Positions 5,055 to 6,644 of a stretch of DNA of 15,817 nt are shown here, piece after piece. The DNA lies in the IMG/VR virus record IMGVR_UViG_2537561618_000006; one strand, given 5' to 3'. Origin of the DNA: a virus. Lineage: Duplodnaviria; Heunggongvirae; Uroviricota; Caudoviricetes. Position 1 is the stretch's first letter; each line of letters starts with the position of its first letter. The notes beneath the pieces are model-generated. The model worked only from the letters and a program-made list of their open reading frames with translations, did not search any database and had not been told where the DNA came from. Made by a program: the position numbers and the translations under genes.

Positions 5055-6644
5055 AACGAACGCCTGTCCTGATTGATGTGAACGGCGTTCCGCTTCGTGA
5101 GAGTCTCAGCTACAACGGAGGCGGCGCAGGATTTGGCGGGCAAATGGCAGAGTGGTTACCACCGGCGCAGAGTGCCGATGCGGCCCTGTTGCCTGCATTG
5201 CGTCTGGGGAATGCCCGGGCAGATGATCTGGTGCGCAATAACGGTATCGCGGCTAATGCGGTGGCCCTGCATAAGGATCATATCGTCGGGCACATGTTTC
5301 TTATCAGCTACCGTCTGAACTGGCGTTGGCTGGGGATGCGGGAGACCACGGCAAAAAGTTTTGTCGGGGAGGTGGAAGCAGCCTGGTCGGAATACGCAGA
5401 AGGAATGTTTGGCGAGATCGACGTGGAAGGGAAACGCACGTTTACGGAATTTATCCGTGAAGGGGTGGGCGTGCATGCCTTTAACGGCGAAATCTTTGTG
5501 CAGCCGGTCTGGGATACGGAAACCACGCAGTTATTCCGTACGCGTTTTAAAGCCGTGAGTCCGAAACGGGTGGACACGCCAGGACACGGTATGGGGAACC
5601 ACTTTCTGCGGGCCGGGGTTGAGGTCGATCGGTATGGGCGGGCGATTGCGTACCATATCTGTGAGGATGATTTTCCGTTCTCTGGTGCCGGACGCTGGGA
5701 GCGGATCCCGCGTGAGCTTCCCACCGGGCGTCCGGCCATGCTGCATATTTTTGAGCCGGTGGAGGACGGGCAGACCCGTGGGGCCAATCAGTTTTACAGC
5801 GTAATGGAGCGGATGAAGATGCTGGACTCCCTGCAGGCCACGCAGCTTCAGTCGGCCATTGTGAAGGCGATGTATGCAGCCACAATCGAAAGTGAACTTG
5901 ATACCGAAAAGGCATTTGAATATATCGCGGGGGCACCGCAAGGTCAGCAGGATAATCCGCTTATTAATATTCTGGAGAAGTTCACCCGCTGGTATGACAC
6001 GAATAACGTGACGCTGGGCGGTGTTAAAATTCCGCACCTTTTTTCCTGGCGATGCGCTGAACCTGCAGACAGCGCAGGATTCAGACAATGGATTTTCGGC
6101 GCTTGAACAGGCGCTGCTGCGGTATATTGCAGCCGGTCTTGGCGTTCCCTACGAACAGTTGTCCCGTGATTACTCGAAGGTCAGTTACTCAAGTGCCCGT
6201 GCCTCCGCCAATGAGTCGTGGCGCTATTTTATGGGGCGGCGAAAATTTATTGCGGCCCGGCTGGCCACGCAGATGTTTTCCTGCTGGCTGGAAGAGGCGC
6301 TTCTTCGGGGGATTATTCGTCCGCCACGGGCGCGTTTTGATTTTTACCAGGCGCGTTCAGCCTGGTCACGGGCAGAGTGGATTGGCTCCGGAAGAATGGC
6401 CATTGACGGGCTCAAGGAGGTCCAGGAATCGGTGATGCGCATTGAGGCCGGACTGAGCACGTATGAGAAAGAACTGGCACTGATGGGCGAAGATTATCAG
6501 GACATTTTCCGCCAGCAGGTCAGGGAATCCGCAGAGCGCGAAAAAGCCGGACTCTCACGTCCGGTGTGGATAGCCCAGGCGTATCAGCAGCAGATAGCGG
6601 AGAGTCGCAGGCCGGAAGAGGAGACAACATCACGTGAGACGTAA
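5051..6644 (+). pseudogene. B: Portal protein (lambda gpB-like) with a +1 frameshift in a T6 run at 6039-6044
   Basis: N-terminal frame 5051-6106 (..GNARADDLVRNNG..FEPVEDGQTRGAN..LQSAIVKAMYAATIESELDT..) and C-terminal frame 6021-6644 (..PGDALNLQTAQDSDNGFS..ASANESW..GSGRMAIDGLKEVQE..) both match lambda gpB colinearly; the junction lies at cacc-tttttt-cctggc. Confidence 0.88.

Follow-up and report, generated by a model that had tools for sequence, protein, structure and literature searches.

Organisation of the locus

The window, meaning the whole 15,817-nucleotide stretch of DNA analysed here, corresponds to the entire contig AFHC01000022.1 in the draft assembly GCA_000213475.2 of Shigella flexneri 4343-70. 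Two insertion elements of the IS3 family, the minus-strand one presumably resembling IS629, are followed by a head and tail gene module in which the gene order of lambda and phage 21 (Nu1, A, W, portal, protease, D, E) is kept (Table 1). The head genes are approximately 90% identical to those of phage 21 at the DNA level. Within the head operon, the portal locus has the gpW-like adaptor on its upstream side and the S49 protease on its downstream side.

Table 1. Features of the window, ordered by position, with the basis for each assignment.
Feature	Position	Strand	Basis or remark
Second IS3-family element, 1304 bp, adjoining the IS600 segment	271..1574	-	25-nt inverted repeats 271-295/1550-1574; rve and HTH_Tnp_1 on minus-strand ORFs
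IS600 (IS3 family) segment, end abutting Nu1	1575..2659	+	E. coli annotation 'IS3-like element IS600 family transposase'; HTH_21 and rve on ORF 1797-2459
Nu1 3' remnant (small terminase)	2660..2967	+	PF07471 85-163/164; intact relatives 169 aa
Terminase large subunit (gpA-like), 642 aa, intact	2939..4867	+	GpA_ATPase, GpA_nuclease
gpW-like head-tail adaptor, intact	4851..5054	+	PF02831; annotated in L001, L003
Portal pseudogene, 5' part: 331 native codons, 20 out-of-frame codons, stop	5051..6106	+	PF05136; product deposited
T6 homopolymer, site of +1 T (ancestral T5)	6039..6044	+	Single gap at 6039 relative to E. coli L001-L003
Portal pseudogene, 3' part, +1 frame: P332 to T530 and stop; mechanical ORF 6021-6644	6045..6644	+	PF05136
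S49 prohead protease/scaffold (gpC-like), 501 aa, open	6634..8139	+	PF01343; annotated in relatives
Head decoration protein (gpD-like), open	8176..8523	+	ORF list; PF02924
Major capsid protein (gpE-like), open	8581..9609	+	ORF list; PF03864
Tape-measure gene, four private 1-nt indels (13919, 14330, 14419, 14452), in-frame 303-nt deletion	12911..15647	+	Locus comparison

The small terminase gene Nu1 was found to be incomplete. PF07471 matched only profile positions 85 to 163 of 164, so that the N-terminal half is gone, and the remnant starts directly at the end of IS600 (junction 2659/2660). The same junction was present in identical form in all the S. flexneri loci read, from 14 other S. flexneri-type assemblies, and was absent from the E. 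coli loci, where Nu1 is full-length with 169 aa. An earlier note on this DNA had considered the terminase, protease, decoration and capsid genes to be intact. This holds for the terminase large subunit, the protease, the decoration protein and the major capsid protein, which are all open, whereas the small subunit is truncated at IS600. Since Nu1 is truncated by the element, the prophage is demonstrably defective even without a lesion in the portal gene. At three loci outside S. flexneri (L019, L020 and L023), a gpA protein identical to the one in the window is encoded beside an intact Nu1 and an intact portal gene.

Two features of the tail genes were also observed. The end of the gpG-like gene and the start of the gpT-like gene (12587-12610) are arranged as G and T are in lambda, T lying in the −1 frame. 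The slippery heptamer of lambda, GGGAAAG, is absent from the whole window, and any programmed −1 G/T shift would therefore need a different site, perhaps A AAG; the gpG-like gene ends in ...CCG GAA AAG TCC TGA. The tape-measure gene is shorter by 303 nt than most copies in S. flexneri and E. coli, owing to an in-frame deletion at approximately 13245/13246 that is common to the window and the S. flexneri locus L007 (912 vs 1013 aa) and that, if the gene were functional, would predict a shorter tail.

A portal gene split at a run of six T

The portal locus is divided into two open reading frames in different frames, one at 5051-6106 (351 aa) and the other at 6021-6644 (207 aa). Together they span 1594 nt (5051-6644), that is 531 codons and one additional nucleotide. 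The portal profile PF05136 (Phage_portal_2) matched the first ORF over profile positions 2-288 (E 1.5e-67, 228.7 bits) and the second over positions 288-354 (E 1.1e-22, 81.2 bits), both above the curated cut-off of 32.9 bits. From these profile positions it follows that the two halves are colinear and abut exactly at the T run. Read directly in the window, the run comprises six T in the context ...ccgcacc TTTTTT cctgg..., with the wider flanks ...AAAATTCCGCACC-TTTTTT-CCTGGCGATGC....

When one T was deleted in silico, a single ORF of 530 aa was obtained, whose product shares 61% identity with lambda gpB over 526 aa; residues 5-528 of the repaired protein align to residues 7-531 of gpB, the 3′ part being collinear with residues 335-531. 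The repaired protein also matched PDB 8k38, 'Portal protein B', with E 2.6e-213 (phmmer). At the point of repair it reads ...GGVKIPHLFPGDALNLQ..., where lambda gpB has ...GGAKVPHLMPGDSLNLQ.... The initial reading of the sequence, namely that the two halves match lambda gpB colinearly in different frames and that a T5 tract would yield a lambda-like sequence at the break, is thus borne out by both the profile matches and the repaired protein.

In its present form the gene is read CTT (6038-6040) TTT (6041-6043) TCC (6044-6046) TGG, as opposed to CTT TTT CCT in the frame of a T5 tract. The truncated product consists of 331 native residues, the last one being F331 (6041-6043), followed by 20 out-of-frame residues (SWRCAEPADSAGFRQWIFGA). 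There is consequently no single uninterrupted reading frame, as the additional T leads to a stop at 6104-6106. Given the broken frame, the locus is a portal pseudogene and does not encode a functional member of the PF05136/gpB family.

Distribution of the T6 and T5 tracts

The tract was read directly in 14 other S. flexneri-type assemblies (L004-L013, L017, L024, L025 and L026), and all of them carried T6. Including the window contig, T6 was thus present in 15 of 15 S. flexneri-type assemblies and T5 in none; the description of T6 as fixed is based on these 15 assemblies together with contig counts, and covers a subset of the S. flexneri phylogroups. The exact 351-aa truncated product, complete with its aberrant tail, has been deposited under AAN42336.1, AAP16213.1, ABF04804.1 and ADA73063.1, among them the product of S. 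flexneri 2a 301; the last three accessions we take to represent the S. flexneri strains 2457T, 8401 and 2002017. At least 1000 contigs encode this exact product, for which the index of the collection lists 2587 blocks. The split portal has accordingly been deposited already as a separate 351-aa CDS under the name 'head-tail preconnector gp5'.

T6 in this sequence context was found in none of 5426 complete E. coli genomes. The five E. coli strains that come closest (CFSAN029787, FDAARGOS_943, VL40, VL46 and RMDEC364) had T5 in all copies found. Their portal gene is 1593 nt long and annotated as intact, and the sole gap in the alignment with the window is at position 6039; between the window and the closest E. 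coli the gene is 99.7% identical. The portal gene was carried over at least 80% of its length by 1850 of the 5426 E. coli genomes, and among the matches listed (40 of the 1850) it was 1593 nt long and annotated 'phage portal protein' in 40 of 40. Likewise, the non-S. flexneri locus L023 contained T5 and a single ORF, and the intact 530-aa portal allele was seen on 106 contigs, whose names give E. coli or Enterobacteriaceae as the organism. The E. coli sister prophages, comprising those of the five strains above and of the genome harbouring L019 and L020, resemble the prophage of the window in the architecture of the module and differ from it in having T5, a 530-aa portal and the full 169-aa Nu1.

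The portal DNA of the S. flexneri locus L005 was identical to that of the E. coli locus L001 except for one added T. T6 is therefore the derived state and of recent origin. The two comparisons that had been proposed as checks on the portal lesion, with orthologous prophages and across strain isolates, accordingly agree: an intact portal with T5 in the closest E. coli, and T6 throughout the S. flexneri-type assemblies read.

The S. flexneri-type T6 allele was also present, together with the IS600/Nu1 junction, on CP178302.1 (loci L009 and L027), a chromosome of 4.44 Mb titled 'Escherichia coli strain ECMA0423'; the record may represent a Shigella-type genome assigned to E. coli. The S. flexneri locus occurs in two variants that differ in their upstream context. 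That these represent paralogues in one genome was rejected: the locus is found in one place per S. flexneri chromosome with an identical IS600/Nu1 junction, and the variants were therefore treated as orthologous.

Substitutions and further lesions in the head and tail genes

Substitutions were counted in the aligned region 2660-13245, in the coding sequences from 2939 onwards, for 11 S. flexneri sequences; a gpU tract that appears to be imported was excluded. The variable sites within S. flexneri comprised 18 nonsynonymous and 7 synonymous changes, and the nonsynonymous fraction of 72% is close to the 76% expected at random (p = 0.64). The fixed differences between S. flexneri and the E. coli copy numbered 40 nonsynonymous and 86 synonymous, a ratio that differs from the one within the species (Fisher p = 2.5e-4). 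Even with some constraint, nonsynonymous changes are expected to make up a large share when the genomes compared are very closely related. The substitutions within S. flexneri thus look unconstrained and fit neutral decay, and with such small counts, and recent polymorphism being enriched in nonsynonymous changes anyway, they support decay without deciding the matter.

Individual lineages displayed changes of their own. In five loci (L004, L006, L008, L009 and L011), a −1 indel accompanied by neighbouring substitutions is found close to the 3′-end of gpA, at window positions 4776-4780, giving a protein of 636 instead of 642 aa. Two further gpA indels, at 3536 and 3664, split the gene of L009 into parts of 201 and 397 aa. 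The excluded gpU-like tract (11120-11357) holds 22 clustered and mostly synonymous substitutions in L004, L006, L008 and L009 only, and looks like a recombination or gene-conversion patch from another lambdoid prophage. The other head and tail genes are open in most lineages. Their openness could be read as retention, but a recent death of the prophage predicts the same.

Recoding, assembly error and switching as alternatives

Recoding at T6 was worth examining, as a slip of the ribosome or the loss of a single U from the transcript restores the native sequence exactly. Some full-length portal protein would then be made, either because RNA polymerase slips and leaves U5 in the transcript, or because tRNA-Phe slips by +1 from UUU (6041-6043) to UUU (6042-6044). 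Such a tRNA slip on CUU UUU U CC would re-pair perfectly and continue into the native ...LFPGD..., and the downstream portal frame is open for 199 codons. Several observations speak against it. The split arrangement is not conserved among homologues, since the relatives outside S. flexneri in which the T run was read have T5 and a single ORF. The A-site codon is UCC rather than a stop, and UCC is not notably rare. No Shine-Dalgarno-like stimulator was seen in the sequence upstream, and the RNA fold of 6020-6140 is unremarkable (z = −1.74; 14 of 200 shuffled sequences fold as well). Nu1 is destroyed in any case, and the substitution pattern looks unconstrained.

A known parallel is the mxiE gene of the same species, in which two overlapping frames are likewise joined at a T/U homopolymer and which is expressed by transcriptional slippage at its U run (PMC1088944). 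The mxiE run is longer than 6 nt, and runs prone to slippage are typically seen to be selected against at a length of about 9 nt, compared with the 6 nt of the portal tract (PMC1088944). The portal locus further differs from slippage genes of the mxiE type in that its split is derived and lineage-specific, and in that the operon is otherwise disabled. Neither a split conserved in homologues nor an adequate tract length, A-site codon and stimulator, as would mark a programmed frameshift, was thus found here, and nothing points to the efficient recoding that had been named as a possible refutation of the broken gene. Recoding at the tract is considered very improbable, as is an adventitious, low-level restoration of the frame with any biological consequence. 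That T6 permits traces of the full-length protein to be made from a gene that seems dead, a 'pseudo-pseudogene', is hardly to be expected; if it did, particles could be built with the open head and tail genes, for example when terminase is supplied in trans by another prophage.

An error in the assembly deserved attention because of the contig itself. The window is the whole of a 15.8-kb contig from a draft assembly, and compared with the closest complete genome, L007 (LR213452.1), it contained 6 substitutions and 7 single-base indels. Indels outnumbering substitutions is the pattern of assembly errors, and a homopolymer miscall of a true T5 was therefore a serious rival explanation of T6. Among the loci compared, the 1-nt indels at 774, 1157, 2451, 13919, 14330, 14419 and 14452 are private to the window. 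Four of them (13919 CCC>CC, 14330 TT>TTT, 14419 AA>A and 14452 CC>C) lie within 534 bp of the tape-measure gene and divide it over three frames; the resulting fragment proteins were seen on the window contig only, and the gene is intact elsewhere, with 1013 aa in nine other S. flexneri loci and 912 aa in L007. These private indels, including the four that break the tape-measure gene, are probably assembly errors. The remaining three all fall inside IS copies, where 2451 (A5 to A6) shortens the IS600 transposase ORF, and a collapsed or low-quality consensus is their likely cause given the many IS copies per genome.

T6 does not belong among these private differences. A homopolymer error should be confined to one assembly or platform, whereas T6 is shared by complete and draft genomes: the 14 other assemblies that carry it include complete chromosomes, and the exact truncated protein is present on at least 1000 contigs. 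T6 as an artefact was rejected on the basis of these exact-protein look-ups and tract reads, and a miscall is by now a most improbable explanation. The caution over raw data in the earlier note was well placed for this contig, with its seven other private single-base indels, while T5, whose presence in the raw data it had named as a refutation, was read in none of the S. flexneri-type assemblies. The window contig thereby illustrates how a real frameshift, common to assemblies, is separated from draft indels, the seven doubtful ones being private.

Two amino acid changes are also private to the window contig, a Ser>Pro at 6147 in the portal 3′ part, where lambda has Ser as well, and a Thr>Ile at 8021 in the protease. 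Either they reflect true decay specific to this strain, or they are additional errors in the consensus. The repaired 530-aa protein of the window and its 207-aa C-terminal ORF had no exact match in the collection, and the corresponding alleles without the Ser>Pro change at 6147 were found there.

A phase-variable switch, in which the tract would flip between T5 and T6 in the population and so toggle the competence of the prophage, has the mutability of homopolymers as its sole support and is very doubtful, as T6 was read in all the S. flexneri-type assemblies and T5 in none, at 6 nt the tract would be a short one for a contingency locus, and the truncation of Nu1 by IS600 is irreversible by any flipping of the tract.

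Predicted effect on the portal protein

By alignment, the break corresponds to residues 334/335 of lambda gpB, inside the clip domain. The domains of gpB are the clip (280-342), the stem (343-367), the wing (368-452) and the crown (453-511), and in the structure of the lambda virion the stem 343-367 and the wing 368-452 are second segments, with Gln379 in contact with DNA (PMC10721106). The truncated product is accordingly predicted to lack approximately 37% of the protein, namely everything from the last part of the clip onwards: the second helix of the stem, the C-terminal portion of the wing with the DNA-contacting region, and the crown. The missing part includes elements that line the channel. 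Judged from the domains that are absent, the truncated product should be unable to build the dodecameric portal ring needed for procapsid assembly and DNA packaging.

Origin of the lesion and status of the prophage

The split portal is very probably a real and heritable frameshift pseudogene, carried by a lambdoid prophage of S. flexneri that is undergoing decay, and not a recoding system. On this reading, a prophage of the lambda/phage 21 type gained one T in the T5 tract of its portal gene, presumably by replication slippage. The T6 tract arose in, or before, the common ancestor of the sampled S. flexneri strains and was thereafter inherited vertically. Translation from 5051 is expected to leave the native frame after Phe331 and to stop 20 codons on. 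As far as can be told from sequence, the element would be a decaying and non-inducible prophage remnant.

The packaging module contains at least two shared inactivating lesions, the portal frameshift and the Nu1 truncated by IS600. An essential packaging gene is inactivated, the lesions are inherited across the 14 other assemblies, and selection appears relaxed in the comparison of 18 nonsynonymous and 7 synonymous changes with 40 and 86, the within-species sample being small. That the prophage is defective, as first proposed from the portal gene, is hence supported by both the +1 T in the T5 tract and the truncated Nu1. Relative to the portal of lambda gpB and phage 21 (PF05136; 8K38), that of the window differs in having its frame broken after residue 331. 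It does not differ materially from decayed prophage remnants of Shigella, with which the element shares IS elements at the packaging region, lesions common to strains and unconstrained substitutions.

A literature search for this lesion yielded, among the matches listed, none that by title or abstract appears to concern it. In public annotation the portal already stands as split CDSs under old accessions, and it is an ordinary pseudogene. For annotation, one portal pseudogene should be marked at this locus in place of two CDSs ('head-tail preconnector gp5' and a fragment), and 'defective' is the proper class for the prophage. Together, T6 and the IS600/Nu1 junction, which are found in 15 of 15 S. 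flexneri-type copies and are absent from the E. coli copies read, the nearly identical intact prophages of the five closest strains among them, form a clean marker of this lineage.
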